Made by a program: the position numbers and the translations under genes | Shown here: in pieces, positions 1 to 39,447 of the stretch | How the letters are laid out: each line of letters opens with the position of its first letter | Position numbering within the stretch: the first letter of the stretch is position 1 | Assembly: GCA_016214655.1 (NCBI GenBank) | Contig: JACROC010000006.1 | Location: 21,377-85,376 of the forward strand | Source: Candidatus Harrisonbacteria bacterium | Lineage (GTDB): Bacteria > Patescibacteriota > Minisyncoccia > UBA6257 > 02-FULL-45-10c | Reading direction: 5' to 3' | Length of the DNA: 64,000 nt | The notes under the pieces: model-generated | Databases searched by the model: none | Told to the model about the DNA's origin: nothing | What the model saw: only the letters and a program-made list of their open reading frames with translations

Positions 1-797
1 AATCAGTTTCTATTGTCTATGATTTTCCTTATAAACATTTGCCGCCGCGCGACTTGAAAGATCGGCTTCGCCGGATTGTGATCGGCTGGTATCACGGATT
101 TTCATTGCGCCGGGCCGGTGCGATTGTGGCGATATCCCATTCAACTAAAGACGAAATAATAAAATTTTTTAATATCAATCCCGGAAAAATCAAAGTCATC
201 TATCACGGTTTTAAAAGCATCTGCGTATTACCGGAGCAAAAATTGGATTTGCCGGATAAATTCTTTTTTTTCGCCGGCACTCTTAAGGAACGGAAAAACG
301 TGCTGAATATAGTCCGCGCTTATAATCTGTTTCGGAAGGCGCGGCCGGATATTGGAATGAAATTGGTTTTGAGCGGAAAAAGCGAGGGCACATATTATGA
401 AGCGCTGAAAAAATATGTTGCGCAGGAGGGTTTGGCGGAAGATGTCGTATTTTCCGGTTATCTTAATGACGGGCAGTTATCGTATGTTTATAAAAAGGCC
501 AGTGCGCTGGTGTTTCCGAGTATTATTGAAGGATCCGGAAACCCGATTTTGGAGGCAATGGACTGCGGATTGCCGGTGATCACTTCCAATATCTTTGGTC
601 CGGCTGAATTGGGAAGCGGCGGATCGGCGCTTTTAGTTGATCCATATAGCGTGGAAGAATTGGCAAGTGCCATGCAAAAAGTGGCAATGGATAAGAAGGT
701 AAGAGAATTTTTGATTGAAAAAGGACGGCGGCAAATAAAGAAATTTTCCTGGGATACGGCAGTGAGAGAGCTCCTTTCGGTAATTAAATCTTTATAG
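1..797 (+). CDS. GT4-family glycosyltransferase (GT-B fold), C-terminal part; 5' end truncated by window edge
   Basis: Reading frame is open from nt 3 up to the listed TTG at 39 (no in-frame stop), so the N-terminal half is outside the window. C-terminal domain shows the retaining-GT4 signature ...FPSIIEGSGNPILEAMDCGLPVITS... Confidence 0.7.
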   Translation, partial: SVSIVYDFPYKHLPPRDLKDRLRRIVIGWYHGFSLRRAGAIVAISHSTKDEIIKFFNINPGKIKVIYHGFKSICVLPEQKLDLPDKFFFFAGTLKERKNVLNIVRAYNLFRKARPDIGMKLVLSGKSEGTYYEALKKYVAQEGLAEDVVFSGYLNDGQLSYVYKKASALVFPSIIEGSGNPILEAMDCGLPVITSNIFGPAELGSGGSALLVDPYSVEELASAMQKVAMDKKVREFLIEKGRRQIKKFSWDTAVRELLSVIKSL

Positions 798-803
798 CGT
801 AGA

Positions 804-1940
804 ATGTATTTTTATTATCGCATACGAAATTGGATTTTTATCTCGCTTAGCATAATTTTATCCCCGGTCATTTTTCTTATTATTCGGTGGCGGGCTCGCA
901 GAAAAAGCGGCAGCCAATTCCCGAGAATTCTTGTGATTCCGCAGTTTACCCGAATCGGCGATGTGGTGTGCGCGACACCGGTGTTCCGGGCGATCAAGAA
1001 GCAATACCCAGAAAGTTTTATCGCGGTAGTGGTGCATAAAAAAGCCGCCGGCATTTTGAAAAATAATCCGCATATCGATGAGGTTATATTATATGGGTAT
1101 GCAAATTTTTTGGACGCGATCCGCCGAATCAGATTCCTTCAATTAAATTGGAGTTTTTGCTTATCCGGAAGTTCCATCGGGAATTTGATGGCATGGTGGG
1201 GAATGATTCCAAATCGTGTTAAATTAACCCGCTCAGGCAGGCCGGTTTCGGAATGGCTGACAGATTGGTTGAATAATTATCAATTTTTTTATGCGCACCA
1301 TACCTATTTGCCTGGCCATTACTTAAAGATGCTTTCGGTATTAGGCATTTCTAATCCGGAAGAGGTAAAAGAAGTTTTTGTTGCTCCAGAAGGGGAGAAA
1401 AAAATCGGACAATTTTTAAAGATTCATCAGATAAGCGAATTTGATATGTTGGTGGGAATGAGTATTACTGCGGGTAATAAAATCAAAGAATGGGGCGACG
1501 GCAAATTCATAGAGCTAGCAAAAAGAATTGTTGCAAAATATACCGCAAAGATTGTTTTTATTGGTGGAAAGAATGATAATGCACGCATTGCATCCTTATT
1601 GGAGAATCTGCCCAAAGTAAGTTATTTCAAGGCGACCGATTTTTCGCTGGAGGAATTGCCTTCTTTGATAAAGCACCTCAAATTATATATTGCAGTGGAT
1701 ACGGGCCCAATATATGTTGCGCATGCACTAAAAACGCCGTTGATTGATATCGTCGGGCCCGTAGATCCTCGGGAACAGCCGCCCCATGATGAGCGCAGTT
1801 TGTTGGTATTGCCGTCAGATGGCATCAATCCGTCAAGCTTTGTATTTAAAAAAGCGGGAGAGGAGGTAAATTATAAGGCAGCTATCGATTCCATTTCAGT
1901 AGAAAGGGTGATGGAAGCAGTAGAAAAATTGATTTCTTAA
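804..1940 (+). CDS. GT9-family glycosyltransferase (ADP-heptose:LPS heptosyltransferase-like)
   Basis: N-terminal motif ILVIPQFTRIGDVVCATPVFRAIKKQYP and C-terminal ...YIAVDTGPIYVAHALKTPLIDIVGP are typical of WaaC/WaaF-type GT9 enzymes. ATG at 804. Confidence 0.65.
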   Translation: MYFYYRIRNWIFISLSIILSPVIFLIIRWRARRKSGSQFPRILVIPQFTRIGDVVCATPVFRAIKKQYPESFIAVVVHKKAAGILKNNPHIDEVILYGYANFLDAIRRIRFLQLNWSFCLSGSSIGNLMAWWGMIPNRVKLTRSGRPVSEWLTDWLNNYQFFYAHHTYLPGHYLKMLSVLGISNPEEVKEVFVAPEGEKKIGQFLKIHQISEFDMLVGMSITAGNKIKEWGDGKFIELAKRIVAKYTAKIVFIGGKNDNARIASLLENLPKVSYFKATDFSLEELPSLIKHLKLYIAVDTGPIYVAHALKTPLIDIVGPVDPREQPPHDERSLLVLPSDGINPSSFVFKKAGEEVNYKAAIDSISVERVMEAVEKLIS

Positions 1941-3004
1941 TGAGAGTTTGTTTTTTAACTCATAATTTGAGATCGGATAATGGCGCGGGAGTTTTTTCTC
2001 TCCGGCTTATTCGGAGCATGCAGGATGCTTTGAGATGTAAAGTGGTGGCATTGACGGCGGTTCCCGATAAAATCAGGTTCTGGAGCGCATTTTTCCAATT
2101 ACGAAAGATTTTGAAAGGATGCGACATTATTCATGCGCTGGATGCCTATCCTTACGGCGTTATGGCAACATTAGCTGCCCTAGGATTAGGAAAGAAAATA
2201 ATCATTACTGCGGTAGGAACCGGCTCAATTAATCCGCTCTATAGGATTCCGTATTCGTGGTTATTGAAATATGTATATCGGCGGGCATATAAAATTACCG
2301 CGATCAGCCATTTTACCAAAAATGAAATATTAAAAAAAGTACCGGATATTCAAATTGAAGTAATTAATCACGGAGTTGATCTTGAAAAGTTTCAAAAAAA
2401 TATTGATACGCGTAAATGCGTCAATGCAGACCAATATAAGCCATATATATTGAGCGTGGGTTCGCTCCGCTGGCGGAAAGGATATCATCTGAGCATTCCG
2501 GCTTTTGCGCGGGTCGCGGCTGAATTCCCAAATTTGAAATACATTATTGTCGGAAAAAAATATGCGGCGGATTATTACCAAAGATTGCAAAAACTCATTT
2601 CCGATTATAAGCTGGAGGACAAGGTATTTTTACTTGATTCTGTAGATAATTTTGACGATCTTTTGTGTTTGTATCGGGGCGCAGAATTATTCTGCCTTTT
2701 ATCGCAAAATGCAAGGCATGATGTTGAGGGATTTGGCCTGGTATTTTTGGAAGCGGCAGCCGCTGGCCTTCCGGTAATCGGCAGTAAAGGCGGGGGCATT
2801 GAGGACGCCGTATTGGAGAATAAAAATGGATTTTTGGTGCCAGAACAAGACGAAGATGTGTTTGCGGGCGCGGTCATTAAGATTTTGAAAAATAAGGATT
2901 TGCGAAATGGGATGGTTAAGGAATCGCTTTCATTGGCCGAATCATCCCGATGGGACAAAAGATTGGATGAATATGCTGCTATTTATAAATCTATAATTCA
3001 TTAA
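1940..3004 (+). CDS. GT4-family glycosyltransferase
   Basis: C-terminal EGFGLVFLEAAAAGLPVIGSKGGGIEDAV (E-x7-E GT4 motif). ATG overlaps upstream stop (taATGa). Confidence 0.75.
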   Translation: MRVCFLTHNLRSDNGAGVFSLRLIRSMQDALRCKVVALTAVPDKIRFWSAFFQLRKILKGCDIIHALDAYPYGVMATLAALGLGKKIIITAVGTGSINPLYRIPYSWLLKYVYRRAYKITAISHFTKNEILKKVPDIQIEVINHGVDLEKFQKNIDTRKCVNADQYKPYILSVGSLRWRKGYHLSIPAFARVAAEFPNLKYIIVGKKYAADYYQRLQKLISDYKLEDKVFLLDSVDNFDDLLCLYRGAELFCLLSQNARHDVEGFGLVFLEAAAAGLPVIGSKGGGIEDAVLENKNGFLVPEQDEDVFAGAVIKILKNKDLRNGMVKESLSLAESSRWDKRLDEYAAIYKSIIH

Positions 3005-3047
3005 ATAAAGTTACGAAAATCTCCTTATTTTGGTTATACTCAATAAC

Positions 3048-4052
3048 ATGGCGCAAAAAAAGAAAGCATTGATTACCGGCATTACCGGACAAGACGGCTC
3101 TTATATGGCTGATTTTTTGCTGGCAAAGGGATATGAAGTGCATGGATTGGTAAGGCGCTCCTCAAGTTTTAATACCGGAAGAATTGATCATTTGTATGGC
3201 GGGACAGTGCAGGAGACGAAGGATTTTTTTATGCACTACGGCGATCTTACCGATACGAATTCACTGATTCATATTATTGATAAATGCCGTCCGGATGAGG
3301 TGTATCATTTTGGCGCTCAGAGCCACGTGCGCATCAGTTTTGATATTCCGGAATCTACTGCGCAAATTACCGGCGTATCTACCCTCAAGCTTCTGGAAGC
3401 GCTTCGTATTGTAAGTCCGAAAACAAAATTTTATCAGGCATCTTCTAGCGAAATGTTCGGTAAAGCAAGAGAGATACCCCAGAAAGAGACAACCCCGTTT
3501 TATCCCCGCAGTCCGTACGGCATTGCGAAAGTTTTTGCATACTGGACCGCAGTGAATTACCGGGAAGCGTACGGAATGTTTGCTTGCAACGGAATTCTGT
3601 TTAACCATGAATCGCCGCGCCGCGGTGAGAATTTCGTAACGCGGAAGATTACCACTGGTATTGCGAAAATTTTAGCCGGCAAACAAAAGAAAATTTATTT
3701 GGGAAATCTTGATGCCAAAAGGGATTGGGGATATGCCCCCGAATATATGGATGCTGCCTGGCGCATGCTTCAGCAGCCGGAGCCCGACGATTATGTTATC
3801 GCAACCGGTGAAACGCATACAGTGCGGGAATTTGTGGAGGAAGCGTTCCGTGTAGCGGGTATTGCGGATTGGAAGAATTATATTGAAGTTGATCCTAGAT
3901 ATTATCGTCCTGCGGAAGTTGATGTGCTGATTGGCGACGCCACTAAAGCAAAGCAGAAATTGGGATGGGAGCCGAAAGTAAAATTCAAGGAATTAGCGGA
4001 AATCATGGTGAAAGCTGATTGTAAAAAGCAAGGTATTGAGCTGAAGTCATGA
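3048..4052 (+). CDS. gmd: GDP-mannose 4,6-dehydratase
   Basis: [46 protein letters not shown]... classic Gmd N-terminus. Catalytic SSSEMFG / YGIAK motifs present. ATG at 3048 (the listed start at 3030 is TTG). Confidence 0.9.
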
Positions 4053-5251
4053 GAAAGATCGGATATCAAATCGGCGTTGGGTGCGCTGATATCAGTAAAA
4101 AAGAAAAAGAATATGTAAAAGACGTGTTGGAGCACGAGCGTCTTTCCTACGGGCCTTACACAAAGAAATTTGAAGAAGAATTCGCAAGAGCTCATGGGTG
4201 CAGATATGCCATTTTTTTGAATAGCGGCACTAGCGCGCTTCGGATTGCGGTAGCCGCTTTGAAAGAGATTGAGGGCTGGAAAGATGGGGATGAGGTATTG
4301 TGCCCCGCAGTTACCTTTGTTGCTTCTTCAAATGTGATTATTATGAACGGCTTAAAGCCGGTGTTTGTGGACGTTGATCCGCGGACATACAATATTGATC
4401 CGCGAAAGATTGAAGAGGAAATTACCAAGAAGACCCGTGCGATTATGGCGGTTAATTTGTTTGGACAGCCGGCGGATATGGATCCGATCTTAAAGATTGC
4501 TAAAAAACACAAGCTGAAAATTATTGAGGATTCCTGCGAAACAATGTTTGTGAAATACAAAGGTAGGCCGGCGGGTTCTTTCGGAGATATCAGCTGTTTT
4601 TCAACATATGTTGCGCATTTATTGGTAACTGGAGTAGGCGGATTTTCCTGCACGAGCAATCCAAAATACGCGGAAGTGATGAAGAGTTTGGCGAATCACG
4701 GCCGGGACGGGATTTATCTGCATATTGATGACGATAAAAATTTGAACAAACAGGGTCTATTTCAGGTAGTGTCCCGGCGATTCCATTTTATCCGCCTTGG
4801 TTATAGTTTTAGGGCGACCGAAATGGAAGCAGCTCTGGGTATAGGTCAGATGGAGCGGAAGGACCAGATTTTAGGGGCAAGGAAAAAGAATGCGGCGTAT
4901 TTGCTGAAAAAATTAAAGCCGCTTGCACAATATCTCCAGCTCCCGTGGCATCCCGGGCGGGTGGAACATTCATTTATGATGTTTCCGATTGTGGTGAAGC
5001 GGGGCGTTGGTATAAAAAAGCAAGACCTGGTGATGTACTTGGAAGAGCATAATGTGGAGACGCGCGACATGCTCCCGCTTTTAAGCCAGCCGGTGTATAA
5101 AAAATTATTCGGCGATATTGAAAACCAATATCCGGTGGCGAAATGGGTAAATGGTAATGGATTTTATATTGGCTGTCATCAAAAACTGACCAAGAAAGAA
5201 ATGGATTATATGGTTGCCGTTTTTGAAGATTTCTTTAAAAAACGAGTATGA
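4049..5251 (+). CDS. DegT/DnrJ/EryC1-family PLP enzyme, ColD-like (GDP-4-keto-6-deoxy-D-mannose 3-dehydratase-like)
   Basis: DegT-fold sequence. At the position where aminotransferases carry the Schiff-base Lys (SFHxxK...GEGG) this protein has ...[19 protein letters not shown]..., i.e. His instead of Lys, as in ColD (remembered as ...TFSSFYSHHIATMEGG...). The C-terminus NGFYIGCHQ resembles ColD GLFVGNHQ. Translationally coupled to gmd (ATGA overlap). Confidence 0.6.
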
Positions 5252-6474
5252 ACATTAAGAAAATTGCTGTCATTCTTCGCCGCCTGAATGTACGCGGCGG
5301 TACCCAGCGCCAGGCGCTTTCTTTGGCGCGTGAGTTGCAAAAGCGCGGCCATACCATCAAGCTCTATACGTTTCTTTATGACGCCGATCGTTCCTATGGG
5401 GATATGCTGAAGAATTTTGAGGTTGTTTCGCTGAATAAAGGCACCGGACCATCTTGGTTAAAATCAGTTCCATTAGTGCGGCATTTTTTGCAATTAGTGA
5501 ATGAAAATAAACTTGCAAAGGAGCTTGCGATGATGATGGATGACGATTTTGACTTACTCAATCCTCACGATCAGGTTAGTTATAAAGTTGCATTTTATTA
5601 CAAAAAATATAAAAGAAATGTTCCATCGGTGTGGCATATGAATGATTTGCCGCTTTTATGCTGGGCCTACGACCGCTTAATGGGTGCAGATGAGGCATTC
5701 CGTCAGTCGCTGGTAAAGCGGTTTCTGTATTATATTGCCGATCAATATGAAATCCGGAAATTCCTGCGGCATCAAGACGCGATTATTGTGGTAGATAGTT
5801 TTAATGTGGATCTTGTAAAAAAATATATGAATCTCGAAGCGATAACCGTGCGGAGCGGCCCAGATACGGAGCATTTCACTTTTACCAAAAGAACGCCGCC
5901 ATCAAAAAATATTAAAATTCTTACCAGCGGCATTTTGATGCCGCACCGGCGGTATCAGGATACTATCCGAGCGGTAAAGATGTTATTGGATGAAGGATGT
6001 GCTCCGACGCTGACCATTCTCGGAGATTATGAAAATGATAAGAAATACCATCAACTGCTTATTAATCTGGTAAATGAATTAGGGATTCAGAATAATGTAA
6101 AATTTTTGGGCAGAGTATCTGAAAAAGATTTATTGCGGGCTTATGCGGAGCACGATATCTACGTATTTCAGCACCATCTTCAGTCTGATGGATTGTCTCC
6201 GTTTGAGGCGGCAGTCTCTGGTTTGCCGATCCTGGTGTCGCGTACCGCCGGATGCCATGAAATGCTTACTGATCACGAGAACGCGCTCATTATAGAACCA
6301 AAAAATCCCGCAGATATTGCGGGATGCGTGAAGGAATTAGCTGATAATTCTGATTTATATATGAAATTGAGCAAGAACGGCGCAGAGTTTGTGTGTGAAA
6401 ATTTTTCTTGGGCGAAATATGCCGATGGGGTATTGCGAGTTTTTGAAAATGCAGCTAAAAGTTACAAGGAATAA
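5248..6474 (+). CDS. GT4-family glycosyltransferase
   Basis: N-terminal GT4 N-domain (RGGTQRQALSLARELQKRGHTIKLY). C-terminal LSPFEAAVSGLPILVSRTAGCHEML motif. Confidence 0.7.
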   Translation: MNIKKIAVILRRLNVRGGTQRQALSLARELQKRGHTIKLYTFLYDADRSYGDMLKNFEVVSLNKGTGPSWLKSVPLVRHFLQLVNENKLAKELAMMMDDDFDLLNPHDQVSYKVAFYYKKYKRNVPSVWHMNDLPLLCWAYDRLMGADEAFRQSLVKRFLYYIADQYEIRKFLRHQDAIIVVDSFNVDLVKKYMNLEAITVRSGPDTEHFTFTKRTPPSKNIKILTSGILMPHRRYQDTIRAVKMLLDEGCAPTLTILGDYENDKKYHQLLINLVNELGIQNNVKFLGRVSEKDLLRAYAEHDIYVFQHHLQSDGLSPFEAAVSGLPILVSRTAGCHEMLTDHENALIIEPKNPADIAGCVKELADNSDLYMKLSKNGAEFVCENFSWAKYADGVLRVFENAAKSYKE

Positions 6475-7352
6475 TATTTTTCCAGATATTTTTGCAAGGA
6501 AACTCGCCAATGAGGAAGTTTTGGTAATTTGGTATTCAGAAGTACGTTAGACGGCGCGCGCGGCACTTTAAAGAATTTGTCTTGATTAACGAAAGTAAGA
6601 CGGAATTTTTCCATTGGGATTTTAAGGTGGTTGGCGATTAATTTTAGTACGTCCAAAGTCGTTGCCTCTCCGGCATTAACTTCATTTACAAGGTGAAATA
6701 TCCCGCTTGCATAATTTCCGCCCAACAAATTGTTTAGTCCTTCGGCGAAGTCATGCGTCCAGGTGGGCGAACGCCATTGGTCTTGGATGACAGACAATTC
6801 GTTTTTTTCTTTAAGATCGTTTATAAATCGATCCACGAATGTTTGTCTTCCTCGTCCATAGAGCCACCCGGTCCGGACGATAAACCATTTTAGGAATGTC
6901 TCCGGATGGGCTGACGCAATCTCTTGTATTAAATCCTCCGCTTCTTTTTTCGCTTTTTGGTATGCGCTTATCGGCTGGCGATCGTCATTCTCTTTATATC
7001 CTTCAACTTTACAATTTTGAAAAGTTCCGCCGAATACTTCGGAAGTGCTGATCTGGACTACTATCGTCGGTTTTTTGAGCTCGATTAATGCCTCAAGGAT
7101 ATTTTTAATTCCGTCACGATTTACCGCATAGCATTTGGCTGGATTTTGTTCGCAAAAATTAATATTCAGAATAGCCGCGCAGTTGATAACGATATCGGGA
7201 CGATGCGTTTCAAGCTGGGCGTGGATGCTTTCCGGATCGGCGATTTCAATATCCTGGTGAGTGAGCTGGATCACTTCAAATTGAGATTTTAGGTGACCCG
7301 ACAATTCTTTTCCCAAAAGCCCACCCGCTCCCGTAATTAAGATCCTTTTCAT
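6462..7352 (-). CDS. NAD(P)-dependent sugar-nucleotide reductase/epimerase, RmlD-like (possible 4-reductase partner of the gmd/ColD-like branch)
   Basis: MKRILITGAGGLLGKELS... Rossmann GxxGxxG motif. Length (~296 aa) and layout match dTDP-4-dehydrorhamnose reductase-type SDRs. It is the only minus-strand gene in the first 20 kb. Confidence 0.55.
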   Translation of the reverse strand: MKRILITGAGGLLGKELSGHLKSQFEVIQLTHQDIEIADPESIHAQLETHRPDIVINCAAILNINFCEQNPAKCYAVNRDGIKNILEALIELKKPTIVVQISTSEVFGGTFQNCKVEGYKENDDRQPISAYQKAKKEAEDLIQEIASAHPETFLKWFIVRTGWLYGRGRQTFVDRFINDLKEKNELSVIQDQWRSPTWTHDFAEGLNNLLGGNYASGIFHLVNEVNAGEATTLDVLKLIANHLKIPMEKFRLTFVNQDKFFKVPRAPSNVLLNTKLPKLPHWRVSLQKYLEKYYSL

Positions 7353-11531: not shown

Positions 11532-11550
11532 CCAAGTGTTTAAGCGGTTT

Positions 11551-33390: not shown

Positions 33391-34308
33391 ATGAATAACA
33401 CATTAAAAATCGGAATTGCCGGCGTCGGCTGGGTCGGCGCCCAGCTCAAAAAATATTTTGAAGAAGTTAGGGATTTTAAGGTCGGGGAGAATTTACTATT
33501 GTATGATATTTTACCCGAAAAATGCGCTGGCAATATAGAAGATGCAGATGTTATTTTCGTAACTCTGCCCACGCCGCGAAGTCGGAATGACGGATCCTGC
33601 AATATCTCTATTGTTACGTCCGCGATTGCTAAGCTGGATGAATTAAGCAAGGACTCTTCGAAAATTATCGTCATTAAATCCACTGTCCCCCCGGGTACGA
33701 CAGAAGATTTCCAGAAAAAGTATCCGCGCCACAAGTTTTTATTCAATCCGGAATTTCTTACCGAGAGCCGCGCCTGGGAAGATATGATGCGGCCGGACCG
33801 GCAGATTATCGGTTATACCGAACATAGTTTGGATGCGGCCCAATTAGTTCTTTCTTTGCTTCCCAAGGCGCCGTTTATGTCGCCATGGGGAACGGGAACA
33901 TATCATCAGACTCGGATCAGTGCGACTGAGGCTGAATTCATAAAATACGCTGGCAACCTTCATTTTGTCCGGAAGGTGAATTGGGCGAATGCACTGGCGC
34001 GTGCGGCGGAAAAAATGGGCGTGAATTACGAGAATGTCCGGAAGGGTATGGCGGCAGACCACCGGATCGGCGATTCTCACTTGGATGTGCATCATGGCGG
34101 CTACCGGGGCTGGGGAGGATCCTGTTTCCCAAAAGATTTAGATGCATTTATACAATTTGCAAAAAGTGAGGGCCTTTCTGAAGTTGAAACTCTTCTTATG
34201 TCGGACCGCAATTTTAATGAAACTCTTTTACAGGAACAGGGACTTTCTTTAGAGCTGGTAAGCGACCATATTGATAAGCTTGCGGAGAAATTAAAGAAGA
34301 AAGCTTAG
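33391..34308 (+). CDS. UDP-glucose/GDP-mannose dehydrogenase-family protein lacking the C-terminal nucleotide-sugar-binding domain
   Basis: IGIAGVGWVG, IVIKSTVPPGTT, NPEFLTES, EAEFIKYAGN and the catalytic GGSCFPKD are all present. The protein ends about 55 aa after the catalytic Cys at 305 aa; canonical members are about 390-450 aa. Confidence 0.55.
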   Translation: MNNTLKIGIAGVGWVGAQLKKYFEEVRDFKVGENLLLYDILPEKCAGNIEDADVIFVTLPTPRSRNDGSCNISIVTSAIAKLDELSKDSSKIIVIKSTVPPGTTEDFQKKYPRHKFLFNPEFLTESRAWEDMMRPDRQIIGYTEHSLDAAQLVLSLLPKAPFMSPWGTGTYHQTRISATEAEFIKYAGNLHFVRKVNWANALARAAEKMGVNYENVRKGMAADHRIGDSHLDVHHGGYRGWGGSCFPKDLDAFIQFAKSEGLSEVETLLMSDRNFNETLLQEQGLSLELVSDHIDKLAEKLKKKA

Positions 34309-34382
34309 AAACTAGTTTTGTTTGCAGATTTGGATTGGATATAATAGAGTTAAAATTGCGTAAGGAAACGCAATTTTATTTT

Positions 34383-36590
34383 ATGAGCAATACTGCGTAC
34401 AAAAATTTCGCACTTTTTATAATAAAAGCCGGAGCTTTTATTATCCCATTGATACCGCTTTATATTGCCAATTCTCTATTTTTCCCATATATAACCGGCA
34501 AGGCGTTTATTTTCCGGATATTGGTGGAAATCATTTTTGCGGCTTGGGTATGGCTGGCGATTTTCTATCCGGAATATCGTCCGCAGAAGACTCCGCTTCT
34601 CATTGCCGCATCACTTTTTTTTGCCGCAGTCGTTTTAGCAACTATTTTGGGCATCAATCCAGCAAGGAGTTTTTGGTCCAATTATGAAAGGATGGAAGGG
34701 TTAGTCGCATATCTCCATCTCTTTGCCTATTTTTTGGTTTTAGGGCATGTATTTAAAAAATCCAATTGGATCATATTTTTCAACGCATTCGTATTGGCCG
34801 GCCTGGCGGAAAATATTTATGCGCTTATTCAGAAACTTGGTTATTTGCCTTCGCCGCAAGGCGGATTTAGGGTGGACGGGACAATCGGCAATCCGACGTA
34901 CCTTGCCGCTTATCTTATTTTTGTGATGGCATTCAGCGGCTGGTTATTTTTGCAGACTGCAAACAAATTCGCGAGATATTTTTACGGCGCCATGGCTGCG
35001 TTTTCTCTGTTAAGCATTTATTTCACCGCGACGCGGGGCGTGGCGGTGGCGTTGGTGGCTGGCGGTATTGCGGGAATCCTATTCTATTTGTCGTTAGTCC
35101 GGGCAATGGATTATAAGCAGCGATGGTATCGAAAATTGGCAATAGCCGGATTGGTGCTGATTTTGTTGGGCTCTTTCTCGGTTAAAATATTCAAGGATTC
35201 ATCGGTGGTCAAAAATAGCGAAGTACTTTCTCGGTTCGCCTCAATTTCTTTTTCTGAGGCGAGGACGAGGTTTACGATTTGGAAGATGGGTTTTGCCGGC
35301 GTGAAGGAAAAGCCGGTTCTTGGTTGGGGGCCGGAAAATTACCCGGTTATCTTTGCAAAGTTTTATAATCCAAGCCTCTATTCTCAAGAACCCTGGTTTG
35401 ACCGTTCCCATAATATTATTTTGGATTGGCTTATTAACGCCGGTATATTAGGTCTTTTTTCTTATCTGAGTATTTTAATAATTGCCGGTTATATAGTTTG
35501 GAAATCATATCGCCGTGGGCGGCTCCCGGCAGAAGAAACGATTTTACTGCTGGTACTTTTATTGGTTTATTTTTTGCAAAATCTTTTTGTTTTTGACCAA
35601 ATCGCAACGTACATTAGTTATTTCGCGGTTCTTGCCTATATTCATAATGTTGCGATTTCTGCCGAGATCCATAAGGAAAAGATTAAGCCGTCTATCCGGT
35701 CGTCAGTTGATGCAGCTAATTATGGACCAATCGCAGCCGGTTTTTTGTTGATTCCGCTGGTGCTGGTGGTTTATTTCATAAATGCCAGGCCATTTTTTGC
35801 TAATAAGAGCTTGCTTAATTCTTTAAAACTTCAAAACCTTCAGGATTTCGAAGGGGCCTTTAAGGGTTATGGACAGGCTTTATCGTATAATACGCTTGGC
35901 AATCAGGAAGTCCGGGAACAATTTGTCCGCTTTGCGGTTAATGCCGGAGCGCTTTCGGGAGTTAGTGCGGAATTTAAGAATAAAATTCTTAGCCGGGCCA
36001 TTGAAGAAGCTGAGGGGGGGGTAAAAGAAAATCTTTTGGATCCGCGGGCCTATCTTTTCTTGGGTTCTATCTACAGCCGGGTTGGGTTAATAGATCCTGC
36101 GATTCAGGTTTTGAACAGGGCGGTGGAATTGTCTCCCAGGAAACAGCAAATTTATTTTGAGTTAGCAGATGCTTATCTTAAAAAAGGAGAAAACGCCAAT
36201 GCGGTTAGGGCCCTGGAGAAATCTTTTAATGATGCTCCGGCCTTTGACCAAGCCAGAATGAATTTAGTGGCCGCTTATATTCTAAATAATCAGCAAGATA
36301 AAGCGGATCAGCTGCTTTTGGAGGCTTATAAAAAAGTTAATATTCCGGATCAGCTCCTGGTGCAGGTTTATTCCGTGACAAAAAATTATGAACGGCTGCT
36401 CGGCATTTGGCAGGCTTTTGCCGGTTCTGATCCCGCCAACGTTGAATACCGGAAGCGTTTGGCTGCCGCTTATCTCTTGGTTAATCAGAAAGATGCGGCC
36501 GTCAGCGAATTGGAAGAGGCCATCCGCCTCAGTCCCGGATTCAAGTCCGAAGGCGAAGCGTTAATTGCGGAAATTAGAAAAGGAAAATAA
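34383..36590 (+). CDS. Wzy_C (O-antigen ligase/polymerase-like) polytopic membrane protein fused to C-terminal TPR repeats
   Basis: About 12 TM helices with the Wzy_C-type loop ...YFTATRGVAVALVAGG... C-terminal ~280 aa are TPR-like (LGSIYSRVGLIDPAIQVLNRAVELSP..., AYLLVNQKDAAVSELEEAIRLSPG). ATG at 34383. Confidence 0.55.
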   Translation: MSNTAYKNFALFIIKAGAFIIPLIPLYIANSLFFPYITGKAFIFRILVEIIFAAWVWLAIFYPEYRPQKTPLLIAASLFFAAVVLATILGINPARSFWSNYERMEGLVAYLHLFAYFLVLGHVFKKSNWIIFFNAFVLAGLAENIYALIQKLGYLPSPQGGFRVDGTIGNPTYLAAYLIFVMAFSGWLFLQTANKFARYFYGAMAAFSLLSIYFTATRGVAVALVAGGIAGILFYLSLVRAMDYKQRWYRKLAIAGLVLILLGSFSVKIFKDSSVVKNSEVLSRFASISFSEARTRFTIWKMGFAGVKEKPVLGWGPENYPVIFAKFYNPSLYSQEPWFDRSHNIILDWLINAGILGLFSYLSILIIAGYIVWKSYRRGRLPAEETILLLVLLLVYFLQNLFVFDQIATYISYFAVLAYIHNVAISAEIHKEKIKPSIRSSVDAANYGPIAAGFLLIPLVLVVYFINARPFFANKSLLNSLKLQNLQDFEGAFKGYGQALSYNTLGNQEVREQFVRFAVNAGALSGVSAEFKNKILSRAIEEAEGGVKENLLDPRAYLFLGSIYSRVGLIDPAIQVLNRAVELSPRKQQIYFELADAYLKKGENANAVRALEKSFNDAPAFDQARMNLVAAYILNNQQDKADQLLLEAYKKVNIPDQLLVQVYSVTKNYERLLGIWQAFAGSDPANVEYRKRLAAAYLLVNQKDAAVSELEEAIRLSPGFKSEGEALIAEIRKGK

Positions 36591-38009
36591 TTCTTCTTTT
36601 TGGAATTTTAAAATCAGCAGATAGGCGATTATCGCGATCCCTAGGTTGAAGATTAAATTCAGGCCAAGGGTTTTAAGCAGGGCAGTTGTAATTGCCGTCA
36701 AAACTGCCGCTGTTAGCGGTTTTTTGATTTTATTCCAGATTTCAAATTCGCTTATCTCCTTTAGTTTTTTCCACATTAGAGAGTTGGCAATTATTTGGGT
36801 GAAGAGTGTGGCGGCCGCGCAGCCGGCGATGCCGAAAGATGGGATTAAAAGGAAATTAAAGAAAACATTGCCGATGGTTCCCACTAACGAAAAAGCAATG
36901 AATCTTTTCTGCTGGTCATGCGCCAGGATGGCGTTGTTGATAATTGCCGACGGGAAGACTATTAAAATGGTTCCCAGTAAAATTTGAAAAGAAGCAATGG
37001 AATTTTGGTAAGCCGGGCCAAAAAATAAATTAATAAGCTGATCGCCAAGAATAATTCCGCCAAAAGTTATCGGCAGAGCAGCCAAGAAAACTATCTTCAA
37101 AGAATTTTCCAGAATTTTTTTGAATTCTTCCCGGCTGGTTTTGGCTAATTTGGTAAATACGGGAAATAAGCTGACTGCAAATAGAGCCGGTAAGATATAT
37201 AAGAATTGAACTGGTCGCTGGGCAGCTGAATAAAATCCTAATTCTTCTGGGGTGCGCAGCCAGCCTAGCATGACGATGTCGGTATTTATCATAATTGCGC
37301 CAAGGGATCCGGCGAGCGCTATCGGCCAGGCCATTTCCAAAATTGGCTTGACGAGCTGGTAGTCAAAATGGGTCAGGAGACTGCTGAAGTAAGGTTTCAG
37401 CCGCCAGACGATTAATAAAAACCCGATTGCAGTGGCAATGGCATAGCTGATAGTCAGGTTGAGGCTGTTGGGATAGAACCATAAGAAAAGGAAGCCTAAG
37501 ACGGAAATGGCAACGTTGGTTAAAGTTTCATTTATGCCTTCCCACTGCATTTTTTCCTTGGCCCGGCCGAGGGTAAAACCGAAATTTCTCAAGCTGTCAA
37601 AAATCAAAATTAAAGCGGCAACCGGCAAAAGCGATTTTACCTCCTCGATTTTAGTGATAATCGGAGCGCCGAAGATTAGTAATACGGCACCGAGCATTAA
37701 AAGTACTGATTTTATGAAAAAGGCCGTGGAAAAATATTTGTTGCTGACCTCCGGGCTTTTGGCGGATTCTCTTGTTACAATGGCGCTTATGCCGATATCG
37801 GTAAAAATGGTTAAAAAGGCCACTAAGCTGGTGGCGTAAGAAAAAGCGCCCCAGCTGGCTGGTCCGAGAATTCTGGCGGCATAGATGATAATGGCGACCC
37901 TCGCCAGCCGCCCGAAAATCTGCCCGAAAAATAGCCAGAAAGTATTTTTAGCGATGGACTGGTGGAGATTTTGATTTTCGAAAAGCAGATTTTTGATTCG
38001 CGAAAACAT
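36561..38009 (-). CDS. Wzx-type flippase (MOP superfamily, Polysacc_synt)
   Basis: 482 aa, 12-14 TM, N-terminus ...LLFENQNLHQSIAKNTFWLFFGQIFGRLARVAIIIYAARILG... typical of Wzx/RfbX. 3' end overlaps the convergent upstream gene by about 30 nt. Confidence 0.65.
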   Translation of the reverse strand: MFSRIKNLLFENQNLHQSIAKNTFWLFFGQIFGRLARVAIIIYAARILGPASWGAFSYATSLVAFLTIFTDIGISAIVTRESAKSPEVSNKYFSTAFFIKSVLLMLGAVLLIFGAPIITKIEEVKSLLPVAALILIFDSLRNFGFTLGRAKEKMQWEGINETLTNVAISVLGFLFLWFYPNSLNLTISYAIATAIGFLLIVWRLKPYFSSLLTHFDYQLVKPILEMAWPIALAGSLGAIMINTDIVMLGWLRTPEELGFYSAAQRPVQFLYILPALFAVSLFPVFTKLAKTSREEFKKILENSLKIVFLAALPITFGGIILGDQLINLFFGPAYQNSIASFQILLGTILIVFPSAIINNAILAHDQQKRFIAFSLVGTIGNVFFNFLLIPSFGIAGCAAATLFTQIIANSLMWKKLKEISEFEIWNKIKKPLTAAVLTAITTALLKTLGLNLIFNLGIAIIAYLLILKFQKEELFSFSNFRN

Positions 38010-38056
38010 ATTAAAAAGCTCTGCCTGTTTGTCGTACGGCAGATAAGCAGAGATTA

Positions 38057-39397
38057 TTACGTGTGGTTAGTGATCAGAAATTTAATAGTCCTTAGAATAA
38101 TCAAAAAATCCAAAAGCGGGGAGTTATTTTTAATGTAGTAAATATCGTATTGCAGTTTCTGATAGGCATCTTCGGCCGAGGCGGCGTAGCGGTAGTTAAT
38201 CTGTGCCCAGCCGGTAATGCCCGGTTTGGTCAGGTGACGGAGATCATAATAGGGCAATTCCTTCCTTAATTTGACGACGAATTCCGGCCGCTCCGGCCTT
38301 GGGCCGACAAAAGACAGCTCGCCTTTCAGGATGTTGATTAACTGCGGCAATTCATCCAGATGCGACCGGCGCAAAATTTTCCCAATCCAAGTCGCCCGTT
38401 TATCTTGATGGTAGTTGGCCCATTGCGGCCCGGATTTTTCTGCATCAACATACATGGTGCGGAATTTATAGATGGTGAATTCTTTTTCGTGTTTGCCGAT
38501 TCTAGTTTGCCTGAAAATTACTGGGCCGGGAGAAGTAAATTTAATTAAAATTGCTATTAGAATTATCAGCGGTGATAAGATTATTCCCAGCAGTAAAGCG
38601 CCCACGATTTCCAGCGGCCCGCTTAATAATTCATAAATTTTATGTTTATTTACCAGATTTTCCAAAAACCAGACTTCTTCCAGTTCGGCTAGCGGGACTT
38701 TATGGAAAATTATTTCATGGAGCCGGGAAAGTTCCATCACTTCGATTCCTAGGACGATGGTTTTATAAATTAATTTGGCCGCCTGGCTGTCTTTTTTAAG
38801 ATGCGCCGGAATTACCATTGTATTGATATTATTAGCCATGATTATCTGCGCCAGATGTCCAAACTCTATGTCTTTAAGGCCTTCCTGCATCCAATATTTT
38901 ACCTGATAGCCGAGCTGCGGATTATTCTGGATATGTTCCATTATTTCTTGGGCGGTTTTATTTGATCCGACGATTAAAACCCGGTTTGCCGCCCCGGTTT
39001 TCCCGACGGCAAAGTTGTAAATTTGTCTCCAAAGATAATTTATACCTCCGAAGACCAAGAAGAAAATAACTAGATTAGTTTTCGGGGTGATGCCGAAATA
39101 GGGTATCAAGTAAAAAAAGATTGCCGTCAGCGCGACATTGAAAATCAGGGCATTCCAAAATACCTGTTCAAACTCCAATCCGTTTTTCAGGAATTTCAGG
39201 TCATAGAGGCCGGCAATGTAAGATACGGCTATCCAGATTCCGAAAATAATTGTGAACGGCTGTATGTGATAATTAATCAGTTCGGCGTAAAATAAATTCC
39301 CGTATCTTAGCCAAAGAGTTAAGATAAGGGCGGCGTAGAGGGTGAGAATGTCGCCGATTATTAAAGTAGTTTGTTTTAATCTGGACAAATTATTCAT
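38057..39397 (-). CDS. polyprenyl-phosphate hexose-1-phosphate transferase (WbaP/WcaJ/PglB-type initiating phosphoglycosyl transferase, Bac_transf)
   Basis: N-terminal TM bundle plus C-terminal SPGPVIFRQTRIGKHEKEFTIYKFRTM...ELPQLINILKGELSFVGPRPERPEFV, the Bac_transf catalytic signature. Confidence 0.85.
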   Translation of the reverse strand: MNNLSRLKQTTLIIGDILTLYAALILTLWLRYGNLFYAELINYHIQPFTIIFGIWIAVSYIAGLYDLKFLKNGLEFEQVFWNALIFNVALTAIFFYLIPYFGITPKTNLVIFFLVFGGINYLWRQIYNFAVGKTGAANRVLIVGSNKTAQEIMEHIQNNPQLGYQVKYWMQEGLKDIEFGHLAQIIMANNINTMVIPAHLKKDSQAAKLIYKTIVLGIEVMELSRLHEIIFHKVPLAELEEVWFLENLVNKHKIYELLSGPLEIVGALLLGIILSPLIILIAILIKFTSPGPVIFRQTRIGKHEKEFTIYKFRTMYVDAEKSGPQWANYHQDKRATWIGKILRRSHLDELPQLINILKGELSFVGPRPERPEFVVKLRKELPYYDLRHLTKPGITGWAQINYRYAASAEDAYQKLQYDIYYIKNNSPLLDFLIILRTIKFLITNHT

Positions 39398-39447
39398 TTG
39401 AGTTACTATAATAAGTACTATATTAATATAACAGTAAATTTACCTAT

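Follow-up and report, generated by a model that had tools for sequence, protein, structure and literature searches.

A large gene island, very probably a Wzx-dependent surface-glycan locus with two ulosonic-acid modules, in a Candidatus Harrisonbacteria genome

The window analysed, a 64,000-nucleotide stretch of a Candidatus Harrisonbacteria contig, contains in positions 1-39400 a total of 35 tightly packed ORFs of at least 100 aa (ORF listing), 31 on the + strand and 4 on the - strand, designated g01 to g35. Nearly all of these belonged to envelope-glycan families in Pfam and NCBIfam scans. Glycan-biosynthesis families were present in none of the 30 ORFs scanned between 39.4 and 64 kb, and this flanking 25 kb was housekeeping. 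The scans and the glycan-free flank bear out the single-theme envelope-glycan island proposed in a preliminary description made from the sequence, although its count of about 38 consecutive genes was too high. Its placement of the organism in the CPR was also right, since g08 was 100% identical to a protein of a Candidatus Harrisonbacteria MAG and the TrxB neighbours were all from Paceibacteria/Patescibacteria MAGs. The window edge cuts the first gene, and the 5' end of the island is beyond it; as relatives carry at least 4 further glycan genes upstream, its full length must exceed 39.4 kb.

The cut gene, g01 (39..797, +), encodes a GT4 glycosyltransferase (Pfam Glycos_transf_1, 8e-33) lacking its N-terminus, with a Glyco_transf_4 match that begins at profile position 117 of 170. 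It is followed by a GT9-family glycosyltransferase (g02, 804..1940, +; Glyco_transf_9, 4e-15), whose orthologue in the related locus L081 was 77% identical, and by two more GT4 enzymes matching Glycos_transf_1, g03 (1940..3004, +; 3e-38) and g06 (5248..6474, +; 1e-25). The same region harbours a dideoxyhexose module. This comprises a GDP-mannose 4,6-dehydratase (g04, 3030..4052, +; GDP_Man_Dehyd over its full length, 8e-144), a PMP-dependent sugar 3-dehydratase (g05, 4049..5251, +; DegT, 3e-95; best NCBIfam match RfbH) and an RmlD-type NDP-4-keto-sugar reductase (g07, 6462..7352, -; RmlD_sub_bind, 6e-54), the last scoring 168 bits against TIGR01214, under the 224-bit cut-off. In an alignment of g05 to perosamine synthase 3BN1, His replaced the catalytic Lys, which identifies the enzyme as ColD/E1-type.

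Five paralogs with a TagB/TagF fold are distributed over the + strand, at 7422..8804 (g08), 10179..11531 (g10, with an 'RMHP' motif), 14488..15855 (g14), 22493..23809 (g22) and 26224..27567 (g25). They matched Pfam Glyphos_transf (2e-12, 3e-9, 2e-10, 2e-15 and 9e-14, respectively) and NF046086, the BFO_1060 family (4e-20, 3e-24, 1e-13, 8e-14 and 1e-15). Their mutual identity was 24-31%, indicating that the paralogs are old, and the AF2 model of g22 presented a GT-B fold (pLDDT 92.7). A first Wzx-type (MOP) flippase (g09, 8794..10170, +; Polysacc_synt, 6e-10; about 9 or more TM segments) lies between the first two paralogs, and this copy recurs adjoining TagF1-type genes.

Tailoring genes follow in the order glyA, CE4 deacetylase, formyltransferase. 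The serine hydroxymethyltransferase (g11, 11452..12768, +; SHMT, 6e-163) was matched from residue 35, its true start probably being near 11.53 kb, and glyA holds the same position in L081. Next are a CE4 polysaccharide deacetylase or deformylase (g12, 12710..13654, +; Polysacc_deac_1, 1.5e-21; TFDDG motif) and a sugar N-formyltransferase (g13, 13657..14454, +; Formyl_trans_N, 1e-11; NxH...D motif), nearest in the PDB to the ArnA N-domain, TDP-3-aminoquinovose N-formyltransferase, PseJ and WbkC. As the window has no amino sugar aminotransferase, the substrate of g13 can only be guessed. Three methyltransferases were found where three or four had been suggested: the SAM methyltransferases g15 (15839..16699, +; Methyltransf_11, 6e-15) and g27 (28266..29279, +; Methyltransf_23, 3e-12), and the putative g26 (27627..28256, +), a weak match (Methyltransf_PK, 1e-4; MTS, 3e-4).

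Two nonulosonic-acid (NulO) modules are present. The first begins with a NeuB-family synthase without SAF domain (g16, 16774..17715, +; NeuB, 1e-75; 249 bits against TIGR03569, under the 400-bit cut-off), a classical SDR oxidoreductase (g17, 17819..18556, +; adh_short_C2, 1e-37) and a GFO/IDH/MocA oxidoreductase (g18, 18520..19551, +; GFO_IDH_MocA_C3, 9e-22) with a UDP-GlcNAc 3-dehydrogenase-like match (3e-24). It continues with a Pol-beta-fold nucleotidyltransferase (g19, 19608..20624, +; NTP_transf_2, 5e-6; GSx10DLD motif; no match in PADLOC or the PDB) and a rare protein with an NTase-like G..SDLD motif (g20, 20637..21695, +). The latter had no match in Pfam, NCBIfam, PADLOC or the PDB and only five homologues; both of the two whose contigs were examined lay in glycan/NulO contexts. 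The CMP-ulosonic acid synthetase of this module is NeuA/PseF-like (g21, 21670..22407, -; CTP_transf_3, 3e-21; 150 bits against TIGR03584, under the cut-off), and the SDR-GFO-NeuA-NeuB grouping recurs in other loci. The second module contains a hydrolysing UDP-HexNAc 2-epimerase of NeuC/LegG type (g28, 29385..30566, +; Epimerase_2, 5e-69; 359 bits against TIGR03568, above the 236-bit cut-off), a second CMP-ulosonic acid synthetase (g29, 30559..31278, +; CTP_transf_3, 2e-23; 186 bits against TIGR03584, under the 206-bit cut-off), a D-2-hydroxyacid dehydrogenase (g30, 31293..32228, +; 2-Hacid_dh_C, 1e-51) and a NeuB-family synthase with SAF domain (g31, 32225..33346, +; NeuB, 5e-63, plus SAF; 243 bits against TIGR03569, under the cut-off). 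The dehydrogenase occupies the same embedded position in three other loci (L125, L127 and L145).

Between the modules lie a GT2 enzyme, likely a polyprenyl-phosphate sugar synthase (g23, 23852..24562, +; Glycos_transf_2, 2e-35; nearest PDB entries Dol-P-Man synthase 5MLZ and ArnC), and a 549-aa membrane protein (g24, 24565..26214, +) with about 12-13 predicted TM helices and no Pfam match. The "GT-C-like" label given to g24 was upheld by its predicted structure: the 22 top Foldseek hits of the AF2 model (pLDDT 88) in the PDB were all GT-C (ArnT, AftA, ALG3, STT3, Emb, Pmt, PglB), which identifies it as a GT-C-fold glycosyltransferase. One g24 homologue cluster was named GT39 and carries PMT_2, and the GT2 and GT-C pair recurs in L093, L095, L096, L116 and L141. 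Downstream of the second module is a short UGDH-family dehydrogenase (g32, 33391..34308, +; UDPG_MGDP_dh_N and central domain only). It had been called truncated, and the C-terminal UDP-binding domain is indeed absent, but the N-terminal GxGxxG and the GGSCFPKD Cys motif are intact. A pseudogene was ruled out because the length is conserved in other MAGs (65-72% identity at equal length in L005 and L064; the L069 copy ends at the contig end).

The 3' end of the island comprises a Wzy_C-domain membrane protein with C-terminal TPR (g33, 34335..36590, +; Wzy_C, 7e-18, TPR repeats; about 12 TM), a second Wzx-type flippase (g34, 36561..38009, -; Polysacc_synt, 2e-35) and a WbaP-type polyprenyl-phosphate hexose-1-phosphate transferase (g35, 38057..39397, -; Bac_transf, 3e-64; 4 TM segments). 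The Wzy_C domain is common to WaaL ligases and PglL/PilO O-oligosaccharyltransferases, and g33 may act as polymerase, ligase or O-oligosaccharyltransferase. Wzz/PCP, LCP ligase and manB/manC genes were not found in the window. The profile scans thus recovered the assembly, export and NeuA/B/C genes of the preliminary description in the numbers given there, together with its five glycosyltransferases and its dideoxyhexose and formyl/methyl tailoring modules.

These three 3' genes form a conserved anchor beside dsbA-trxB in many Paceibacteria, and the order wzy_C-TPR, wzx, wbaP, dsbA, trxB, PaaX_M-like gene and LTD giant protein was syntenic across many MAGs. In the 57 TrxB-anchored loci that had 5 kb or more of upstream sequence, WbaP was found in 35, Wzx2 in 31, Wzy_C-TPR in 10 and NeuB in only 1. 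All of the island upstream of the anchor is a mosaic variable region. The relatives L081 and L141 share 78-83% nucleotide identity with the window and are collinear with it except for three cassettes: an indel of g03 (missing in L081; blastn gap 1937-3004), a replacement of g19-g21 and an indel of g26 (missing in L141; blastn gap 27542-28283). A further locus, L083 (GCA_020724845.1), had the left part in common with the window and a different NulO module. Given such close syntenic relatives in public data, and sialic-acid genes previously noted in CPR genomes (PMC4736985), the earlier suggestion of an "undescribed system" was overstated. The island is the form taken here by a modular glycan locus that is widespread in Paceibacteria and has a conserved wbaP-wzx anchor; it is large for a tiny CPR genome, yet built of known modules, and represents a familiar type of system in a lineage that has received little study.

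Under the "teichoic-acid-like" polyol-phosphate reading first proposed, the TagB/TagF-fold paralogs would be five genuine CDP-glycerol/CDP-ribitol phosphotransferases that make an anionic polymer also carrying nonulosonic acids and deoxyhexose. All five paralogs passed the PF04464 gathering threshold (37-57 bits against 22.1), TarL was the only PDB sequence match of the family profile, a C-terminal DG(K/R)SxxR motif is common to the family and TarL, and the NCBI annotation of a paralog protein is CDP-glycerol glycerophosphotransferase family protein. TagF-like capsule polymerases are also known from outside wall teichoic acid systems (PMC5974469). The TarL match was nevertheless weak (E 9e-7) and confined to the C-terminal half. 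The invariant, activity-critical H433 of TarL (the second His of TagF) aligned to Y/H/P/P/Q across the five paralogs, leaving His only in g10; the other 4 lack it, as do 25 of 36 family members. Nor was the PT(W/F)R region conserved, and in the aligned N-subdomain an invariant W-D appears to stand where TarL has W299-H300. A scan of 65 window ORFs detected no CTP:glycerol-3-P or ribitol-5-P cytidylyltransferase and no ribulose-5-P reductase. Initiation and export are of WbaP and Wzx type, respectively, and the window has no TagO/TagA, TagGH or LCP ligase. The polyol-phosphate reading is therefore unlikely, and the product is probably not a teichoic acid.

In Tannerella forsythia, terminal transfer of Pse/Leg depends on the BFO_1060 family (PMC5420450). 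This family outscored TarB/F/L for all five paralogs (1e-13 to 3e-24 vs 7e-5 or worse), at 51-86 bits, far under its curated cut-off of 200. In a metagenome survey of 46 loci of at least 8 kb anchored on TagF-like homologues, some of them duplicates of one contig, NeuA/B/C genes lay within 10 kb in 30 loci and at least two TagF-like paralogs occurred in 27. A TagD-like gene was found in only 1 of the 46, with a TagD query that may be approximate. The homologues are thus genomically tied to NeuA/NeuB/NeuC and not to TagD. On balance, transfer of ulosonic acids by the paralogs, g08 included, is slightly favoured. Against this, the Tannerella sialyltransferase motifs HP and D/E-D/E-G were not conserved in the paralogs, and SpsB of B. 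subtilis, the only further TagB-like protein to have been tested beside a Leg pathway, was dispensable for Leg transfer (PMC7439481).

The island is very probably a Wzx-dependent surface-glycan locus, and its product is most likely a surface sugar chain attached to a lipid carrier, rich in sugars of sialic-acid-like type and with a dideoxy sugar. The full reading, a locus for a heteroglycan linked to undecaprenyl phosphate, with two CMP-ulosonic acid modules and a variable part attached to the conserved anchor, is held with reasonable but lesser confidence. WbaP would start the chain on undecaprenyl phosphate, and the four GT4 and one GT9 enzymes would add hexoses. GMD, the ColD-type 3-dehydratase and the RmlD-type 4-reductase might supply a colitose-like GDP-3,6-dideoxyhexose, the configuration of which is uncertain owing to the lack of a ColC-type epimerase. 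NeuC, the second NeuA, the 2-hydroxyacid dehydrogenase and the second NeuB may yield a CMP-Neu5Ac-type nonulosonic acid, and the first NeuB, SDR, GFO oxidoreductase, NTase pair and first NeuA a second CMP-ulosonic acid. The five paralogs would act as CMP-dependent ulosonic-acid transferases rather than polyol-phosphate transferases. N-acetyl groups could be exchanged for N-formyl by the CE4 enzyme and the ArnA-like formyltransferase, possibly with one-carbon units via glyA, and the methyltransferases would donate methyl groups. After crossing the membrane via Wzx, the unit might receive a side-branch sugar from the GT2 and GT-C pair, and the Wzy_C-TPR protein would then polymerise it or ligate it to a surface acceptor. 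As predicted in the preliminary description, the glycan structure is not readable from known loci. The excess of five transferases over two ulosonic-acid pathways is unexplained.

The locus might instead serve general protein O-glycosylation and form no capsule or O-antigen-like polymer, with one large oligosaccharide built on undecaprenyl phosphate, flipped and moved en bloc by g33 (as a PglL/PilO/WsaB-type O-oligosaccharyltransferase) to proteins at the cell surface, for example an S-layer protein, pilins or the 1405-aa LTD protein encoded nearby. The Pfam description of its domain covers such enzymes, the TPR domain suggests protein recognition, and the missing chain-length regulator and LCP ligase, the synteny from wzy_C-TPR to the LTD giant protein and the protein O-glycosylation role of the nearest functional counterpart to the TagB-like enzymes (PMC5420450) all fit. 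The g33 sequence does not separate an oligosaccharyltransferase from a polymerase or ligase, however, its PDB sequence matches being to the TPR only. Furthermore, only 10 of the 57 anchored loci had Wzy_C-TPR at a distance of up to 10 kb, no acceptor protein or sequon was identified, and the extracytoplasmic transferase might just as well be g24, so that this alternative is regarded as tentative. Division of the 39 kb into two or more adjacent loci (a conserved housekeeping wbaP-wzx2 core glycan, a separately flipped outer or second glycan using wzx1, and an independent GT2/GT-C module) is possible to a similarly limited degree. It would account for the two Wzx genes, the conserved anchor beside a variable remainder, the independent recombination of the NeuC-NeuA-2HADH-NeuB and GT2-GT-C modules, and the recurrence of the GT4/TagF1-type/Wzx1 triple alone in many contigs (e.g. 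L086, L090, L093). Against such a division stand the single initiating phosphoglycosyl transferase in the window, genes that are nearly all co-directional, overlapping or very shortly spaced, and left and middle parts that stay collinear in a close relative.

Thirty-five ORFs of at least 100 aa were listed between positions 39 and 39397, densely packed and predominantly on the + strand. Families were assigned by Pfam and NCBIfam scans covering 65 ORFs of the window, 30 of them downstream of the island. The island begins with genes for three glycosyltransferases (g01-g03; GT4, with its 5' part lost at the window edge, GT9 and GT4), a GDP-mannose 4,6-dehydratase (GMD, matched at 8e-144), a DegT-family protein and another GT4 enzyme (g04-g06), and, on the - strand, an RmlD-type reductase (g07). 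The first Wzx lies between TagF-like proteins 1 and 2 (g08-g10), and is followed by a serine hydroxymethyltransferase (SHMT, glyA), a CE4 deacetylase and a formyltransferase (g11-g13), TagF-like 3 and a methyltransferase (g14-g15), the first NeuB, an SDR and a GFO/IDH/MocA oxidoreductase (g16-g18), an NTP_transf_2 protein and a 352-aa protein without a family match (g19-g20), and a CTP_transf_3 protein (g21, NeuA1) on the - strand. TagF-like 4, a GT2 glycosyltransferase, a 549-aa membrane protein and TagF-like 5 come next (g22-g25), then two methyltransferases, one with a weak match (g26-g27), and NeuC (above the TIGR03568 cut-off), a second CTP_transf_3 protein (NeuA2), a 2-hydroxyacid dehydrogenase and a second NeuB with an SAF domain (g28-g31). 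The 3' end encodes a short UGDH-like protein, a protein with Wzy_C and TPR domains (g32-g33) and, both on the - strand, the second Wzx and a WbaP-type Bac_transf protein (g34-g35).

The preliminary description had counted about 38 genes, which is now revised to 35, and had ascribed them to a single envelope-glycan theme. No glycan-biosynthesis family was matched among the 30 downstream ORFs scanned, all of which were of other kinds, and the thematic clustering is therefore real. The downstream ORFs include DsbA-like, TrxB-like, PaaX_M-like, 1405-aa LTD, SpoU and MFS transporter proteins. Further downstream, a compact central-carbon cluster at 52810-63367 encodes GAPDH, RpiB, a TrmB-like regulator, PRPP synthase, a phosphoribosyltransferase, a histidine phosphatase, Rpe, a transketolase split into separate genes for its N and C parts, an M50 peptidase and a PfkB kinase. 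As g01 is cut by the window edge and a close relative carries at least four additional glycan genes upstream, the island is larger than 39.4 kb. No tRNA gene marking an integration site was present in the window.

The five TagF-like paralogs (g08, g10, g14, g22 and g25) shared 24-31% pairwise identity, and each type had its own orthologues in other contigs. All five scored above the gathering score of PF04464 (Glyphos_transf; 37-57 bits vs 22.1), with a match spanning only the C-terminal two-thirds of the profile. The best NCBIfam match of each was NF046086, the BFO_1060 family glycosyltransferases (E 1e-13 to 3e-24), at 51-86 bits, which is below the curated cut-off of 200 bits; the TarB/F/L models gave E values of 7e-5 or worse. 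A profile of 36 sequences of the TagF-like family matched only TarL in the PDB, at an E value of 9e-7 and in the C-terminal half only, and a PDB sequence search with g22 alone gave no match.

Enzymes of the TagF-like family have two invariant histidines that are critical for activity, and H433 of TarL, the His of 'KMHP', is one of them (PMC10901376). Both positions were considered (TagF H444/H548, equivalent to TarL H300/H433). The H433 column holds Y, H, P, P and Q in g08, g10, g14, g22 and g25, respectively, and the histidine is thus lost in four of the five; across the 36 family members the column contains Y in 18, H in 11 and P in 5. TarL W299-H300, which provides the catalytic base, probably corresponds to an invariant W-D in the family, in a region that is not alignable by sequence. 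Nor do the paralogs conserve the PT(W/F)R region.

The presence of a PF04464 domain would fit a polyol-phosphate transferase, and the preliminary description had included a teichoic-acid-like component. Against such an activity stand the loss of the H433 equivalent, the probable W-D in place of W-H, the unconserved PT(W/F)R region, and the gene content of the window. No CDP-glycerol or CDP-ribitol synthesis gene (TagD/TarD, TarI/TarJ) was found among the 65 ORFs scanned, and no Glycos_transf_4 (WecA-type), Glyco_tran_WecG, ABC2 or LytR_cpsA_psr match that could represent TagO/TagA, TagGH or LCP was found in the window. Polyol-phosphate transfer by these proteins is considered improbable. With genes for polyol activation, linkage, export and ligation all absent from the window and H433 lost in four of five paralogs, the teichoic-acid-like component should be dropped.

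The genomic surroundings of the paralogs point elsewhere. CMP-nonulosonic acid pathway genes are close at hand in the window: g22 adjoins NeuA1, g14 is separated from NeuB1 by one gene (g15), and NeuC is the third gene after g25. Of 46 metagenome loci that were anchored on a TagF-like homologue and were 8 kb or longer, some being duplicates of one contig, 30 had NeuA, NeuB or NeuC homologues within 10 kb, against a baseline of NeuB in 1 of 57 loci anchored on TrxB. Two or more paralogs were present in 27 of the 46 and three or more in 19, while a TagD-like gene, searched for with an uncurated TagD query sequence, was found in one. The BFO_1060 family comprises TagB-like proteins of Tannerella forsythia; when these are deleted, the S-layer O-glycan loses its terminal Pse or Leg derivative (PMC5420450). 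Leg transfer did not require Bacillus subtilis SpsB, another TagB-like protein whose gene lies beside a Leg pathway (PMC7439481). As for the sialyltransferase motifs, HP and D/E-D/E-G were absent from the five paralogs or not conserved in position, and so cannot be used as support. On this evidence from sequence and gene context, we lean towards the view that the TagF-like paralogs transfer ulosonic acids.

Two gene modules could supply such acids. Module B (NeuC, NeuA2, the 2-hydroxyacid dehydrogenase and NeuB2) contains the gene set of the Neu5Ac route. Its hydrolysing UDP-GlcNAc 2-epimerase, g28, scored 359 bits with TIGR03568 (cut-off 236 bits), an equivalog-level match. Both NeuB proteins had strong Pfam NeuB matches, yet scored 243-249 bits against the TIGR03569 cut-off of 400; similarly, both NeuA proteins had strong Pfam CTP_transf_3 matches, yet scored 150-186 bits against the TIGR03584 cut-off of 206. 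The D-2-hydroxyacid dehydrogenase gene (31293-32228) lies between NeuA and NeuB, a position kept in three other loci (L125, L127 and L145; 57-59% identity); we know of no role for this enzyme in ulosonic-acid synthesis. Module A consists of NeuB1, which lacks SAF, the SDR, the GFO oxidoreductase, g19/g20 and NeuA1, and we infer that its product would be a second ulosonic acid. Legionaminic and pseudaminic acid pathways were considered and ruled out: Pfam and NCBIfam scans of the window gave no LegB/PseB-level dehydratase, LegC/PseC aminotransferase or LegH/PseH acetyltransferase, and the sole DegT protein of the island has His in place of Lys.

The segment g19-g21 (19608-22407) has a GC content of 0.36, compared with about 0.42 elsewhere, and is swapped for a + strand NeuA gene in the closest relative, L141. 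By inspection, a Pol-beta nucleotidyltransferase-like G[ST]...SDLD motif was recognised in g19 as well as in g20; PDB sequence searches with either gave no match. Only five homologues of g20 were detectable among approximately 5.8 billion protein clusters, and both contigs examined were glycan/NulO loci. The possibility that the low-GC pair is an inserted defence cassette was dropped, given these contigs and the lack of a PADLOC match. The short UGDH-like protein g32 (33391-34308; 305 aa) had been described as a truncated UGDH. The C-terminal UDP-binding domain is indeed missing, but the gene is not a pseudogene, because the GxGxxG and GGSCFPKD cysteine motifs are intact and proteins of 65-72% identity occur in other MAGs: those in L005 and L064 have an unchanged length, and the copy in L069 runs off its contig. 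It may represent an uncharacterised short UGDH subfamily.

Further sugar and tailoring genes are found in the left part of the island. When g05 was aligned with HMMER to the Caulobacter GDP-perosamine synthase 3BN1, the Schiff-base Lys ('FSFFGNK') fell on His ('FSTYVAH'). The best NCBIfam match of g05 was RfbH, and the ColD structures 2GMS and 3GR9 matched at approximately 1e-51. Together with the upstream GMD, this indicates a ColD-type GDP-4-keto-6-deoxymannose 3-dehydratase. The replacement of the catalytic Lys excludes an aminotransferase, and hence a role for g05 as a perosamine synthase feeding the formyltransferase in a Brucella-type N-formylperosamine route. No GDP-fucose-synthase-type ColC (C5-epimerase/4-reductase) was identified, the sole candidate, g07, being RmlD-type (RmlD_sub_bind, 6e-54); therefore the 3,6-dideoxyhexose need not be colitose, and g04, g05 and g07 may make a different one. 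The formyltransferase g13 bears an N-x-H...D signature, and its nearest PDB entries are sugar N-formyltransferases, namely the ArnA N-domain, TDP-3-aminoquinovose N-formyltransferase, PseJ, WbkC and WlaRD; the CE4 protein g12 bears a TFDDG motif. Directly upstream of these two genes is glyA (11452-12768), an arrangement that only the closest relative shares with the window. A role for glyA as one-carbon supplier to the formyltransferase is possible but weak. The TTG start listed for glyA lies within g10, giving an overlap of 80 nt, and the Pfam match does not begin until residue 35, which makes a true start near 11.53 kb probable.

A scan of a genome collection with the TrxB-like flanking protein as query returned 80 loci, nearly all from Patescibacteria/Paceibacteria-type MAGs as judged by title (best match 75% identity; Harrisonbacteria 68-70%). 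In addition, three island proteins were 100% identical to proteins of a Candidatus Harrisonbacteria MAG, which has locus tags such as HZB99_03255 and HZB99_03275. The CPR lineage proposed earlier is thus correct. All island proteins were searched by tblastn against these 80 loci, and counts were made on the 57 that extend 5 kb or more upstream of TrxB. WbaP and DsbA were each found in the window-like arrangement in 35 of the 57, Wzx2 in 31 and Wzy_C-TPR in 10, whereas upstream island genes occurred in single loci only (NeuB in one, a TagF-like gene in one). It follows that the island combines a variable region with an anchor at its 3' end that is shared across the lineage, a layout typical of O-antigen and capsule loci. 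Genes for the DsbA-like, TrxB-like, PaaX_M, 165-aa and 1405-aa proteins (39448-47046) adjoin wbaP-wzx in many Paceibacteria MAGs. The PaaX_M protein has a Cas2-like fold (PADLOC Cas2, 2e-8) and its 165-aa neighbour has no known function; the 1405-aa lamin-tail-domain (LTD) protein has an N-terminal TM segment.

Upstream of the anchor, relatives differ by whole cassettes. Contigs L081/L085 and L141 come from one metagenome (JGI 3300031576); their nucleotide identity to the window is 78-83%, and the order is collinear. Comparison of the window with L081/L141 revealed three events, namely the presence or absence of g03 (GT4), the swap of low-GC g19-g21 for the + strand NeuA gene, and the presence or absence of the methyltransferase gene g26. 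In GCA_020724845.1, the left third is common to the window at 54-84% amino-acid identity, and is followed by a different ulosonic-acid module. Sub-modules recurred independently in other contigs: GT4/TagF1-type/Wzx1, TagF2-type/CE4, TagF4/TagF5 arrays, GT2/GT-C, NeuC/NeuA/2-HADH/NeuB and SDR/GFO/NeuA/NeuB.

For assembly and export, the island encodes an initiating polyprenyl-phosphate phosphoglycosyl transferase (g35; Bac_transf 3e-64, 4 TM segments) and two MOP-family Wzx proteins (g34, Polysacc_synt 2e-35; g09, 6e-10). In g33, a Wzy_C domain (7e-18) is fused to TPR repeats, and its sequence is compatible with a polymerase, a ligase or an O-OTase alike; a PDB sequence search with g33 returned TPR matches only. 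No family match to a Wzz/PCP chain-length regulator was found in the 35 island ORFs or the rest of the window, and such a gene could lie elsewhere in the genome. The 549-aa membrane protein g24 has approximately 12-13 predicted TM helices, and one cluster of its homologues is named 'glycosyltransferase family 39' and carries PMT_2. A PDB sequence search with g24 gave no match. Its AF2 model (pLDDT 88.3) was compared with the PDB by Foldseek, and the best 22 matches were all GT-C proteins (probability approximately 1, TM approximately 0.4), among them ArnT, AftA, ALG3, STT3, DPY19, Emb, Pmt, PglB and AftB; WaaL had a probability of 0.15. The adjoining GT2 protein g23 is nearest in the PDB to Dol-P-Man synthase (DPMS) and ArnC. 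The two proteins g23 and g24 thus resemble a polyprenyl-phosphate-sugar and GT-C pair for extracytoplasmic glycosylation.

In the pathway that we propose, WbaP would prime undecaprenyl phosphate, and the chain would be extended in the cytoplasm by GT4, GT9 and TagB-fold transferases from GDP-dideoxyhexose, CMP-ulosonic acids and common UDP-sugars. The glycan would be tailored by the CE4 enzyme, the formyltransferase and the methyltransferases, and the unit flipped across the membrane by Wzx. GT2 and GT-C would add a side-branch sugar on the outside, and Wzy_C-TPR would polymerise the unit or ligate it to an acceptor. The absence of Wzz and of an LCP ligase from the window, the hint of protein recognition in the TPR fusion, and the synteny of the giant LTD surface protein with the anchor make it conceivable that the locus is a protein O-glycosylation system, although we regard this as rather unlikely; the LTD protein might be the surface acceptor. 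It is also possible, and again not what we favour, that more than one glycan is encoded, as the two Wzx genes and the independent recombination of modules would suggest.

Every component is of a known family, and the locus as a whole follows the logic of Wzx-dependent loci for O-antigen, capsule or S-layer glycan. None of the described loci matches it gene for gene, as is usual in this class. The general protein O-glycosylation locus of T. forsythia, with Pse/Leg genes and the TagB-like transferases Tanf_01245/TFUB4_00887 (BFO_1060 family), has in common with the window TagB/TagF-fold proteins beside CMP-nonulosonic acid pathways, lipid-carrier assembly with a Wzx-type flippase, methyl/acyl tailoring and a dideoxyhexose (digitoxose in T. 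forsythia). The window differs in having five paralogs rather than one, scores far below the family cut-off, unconserved HP and D/E-D/E-G motifs, no PseB/C/H/G or LegB/C/H, and a monoderm-type CPR host rather than Bacteroidota. Wzx/Wzy O-antigen and capsule loci, such as those of colitose-containing E. coli O55/O111, share a WbaP-type initiator, Wzx, a Wzy_C-family protein, a run of GT4/GT2 genes, gmd with a ColD-type 3-dehydratase, and hypervariable genes between conserved flanks. The window lacks ColC (an RmlD-type reductase is present instead), manB/manC and Wzz, adds two ulosonic-acid modules and the GT2/GT-C pair, and its host presumably has no LPS.

With the wall teichoic acid pathway, the window shares a distantly related GT-B domain (PF04464), a C-terminal DG(K/R)SxxR motif and a cytidine-nucleotide donor, but it is without polyol-activation genes, TagO/TagA, an ABC exporter or an LCP ligase, and the His433 equivalent and, probably, the W-H of the N-subdomain are replaced as described for the paralogs. 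The Arn system (ArnA/ArnC/ArnD/ArnT) and Gtr-type modules also combine a GT2 polyprenyl-phosphate sugar synthase with a GT-C enzyme (nearest fold ArnT), and an ArnA-like N-formyltransferase and a CE4 enzyme (ArnD family) are found in the same island here. Unlike Arn, the window has no ArnB-type aminotransferase or UDP-GlcA decarboxylase, its CE4/formyltransferase genes are 10 kb from GT2/GT-C, and the target is not lipid A. In Geobacillus/Paenibacillus S-layer glycan (slg) loci and in Pseudomonas aeruginosa 1244 pilin glycosylation, a WbaP-like initiator and a Wzy_C-family O-oligosaccharyltransferase transfer an undecaprenyl-linked glycan onto a surface protein, and the strain 1244 pilin glycan contains N-formylated pseudaminic acid. 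No acceptor protein was recognised in the window, and transfer to a protein is only one option for g33.

CPR/Patescibacteria have genomes of about 1 Mb or less and are attached to or dependent on other cells; to our knowledge, their surface chemistry is essentially unmeasured. The island is unusual in its lineage, which is nearly absent from the nonulosonic-acid literature searched, in its size relative to a CPR genome, and in its set of five divergent TagB-fold paralogs with their link to ulosonic-acid genes. Such linked arrays are widespread among CPR metagenome contigs. The library searched contained no paper that mentions Patescibacteria together with nonulosonic acids, or Candidate Phyla Radiation and Parcubacteria together with O-antigen and glycosyltransferase; in one paper, sialic-acid genes of Peregrinibacteria are mentioned in passing only (PMC4736985). 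At the genome sizes typical of CPR bacteria, the island, with its 39 kb or more, would occupy a few percent of the genome, which argues for strong, diversifying selection on surface glycans, and close relatives already differ by entire gene cassettes.

Many CPR MAG genes annotated as 'CDP-glycerol glycerophosphotransferase' are probably no sign of teichoic acids, and may instead point to nonulosonic-acid transferases of a little-studied class, of which we know very few characterised enzymes in any organism. If so, they would be candidate glycoengineering enzymes and would serve to recognise uncultivated bacteria with sialic-acid-like surfaces; if not, the island is an ordinary though large O-antigen/capsule-like locus. 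A broader proposal is made only tentatively. A large Paceibacteria (CPR) clade of TagB/TagF-fold proteins, currently carrying this annotation, may have had the paired histidines replaced (W-H by W-D; H433 by Y, P or Q) and may serve as the lineage's ulosonic-acid transferases, in arrays of two to five paralogs, within a WbaP-Wzx-Wzy_C-TPR system of general protein O-glycosylation that shapes the host-contact surface. The products would be oligo-ulosonic-acid-rich glycans attached to surface proteins of host-contacting episymbionts.

ADP-heptose synthesis genes were not found in the window. The island contains a gene of the GT9 ('heptosyltransferase') family at 804-1940, although the organism is presumed to be without LPS, and this gene has counterparts beside TagF-like genes in other CPR contigs (L091, L133, L148 and L149).
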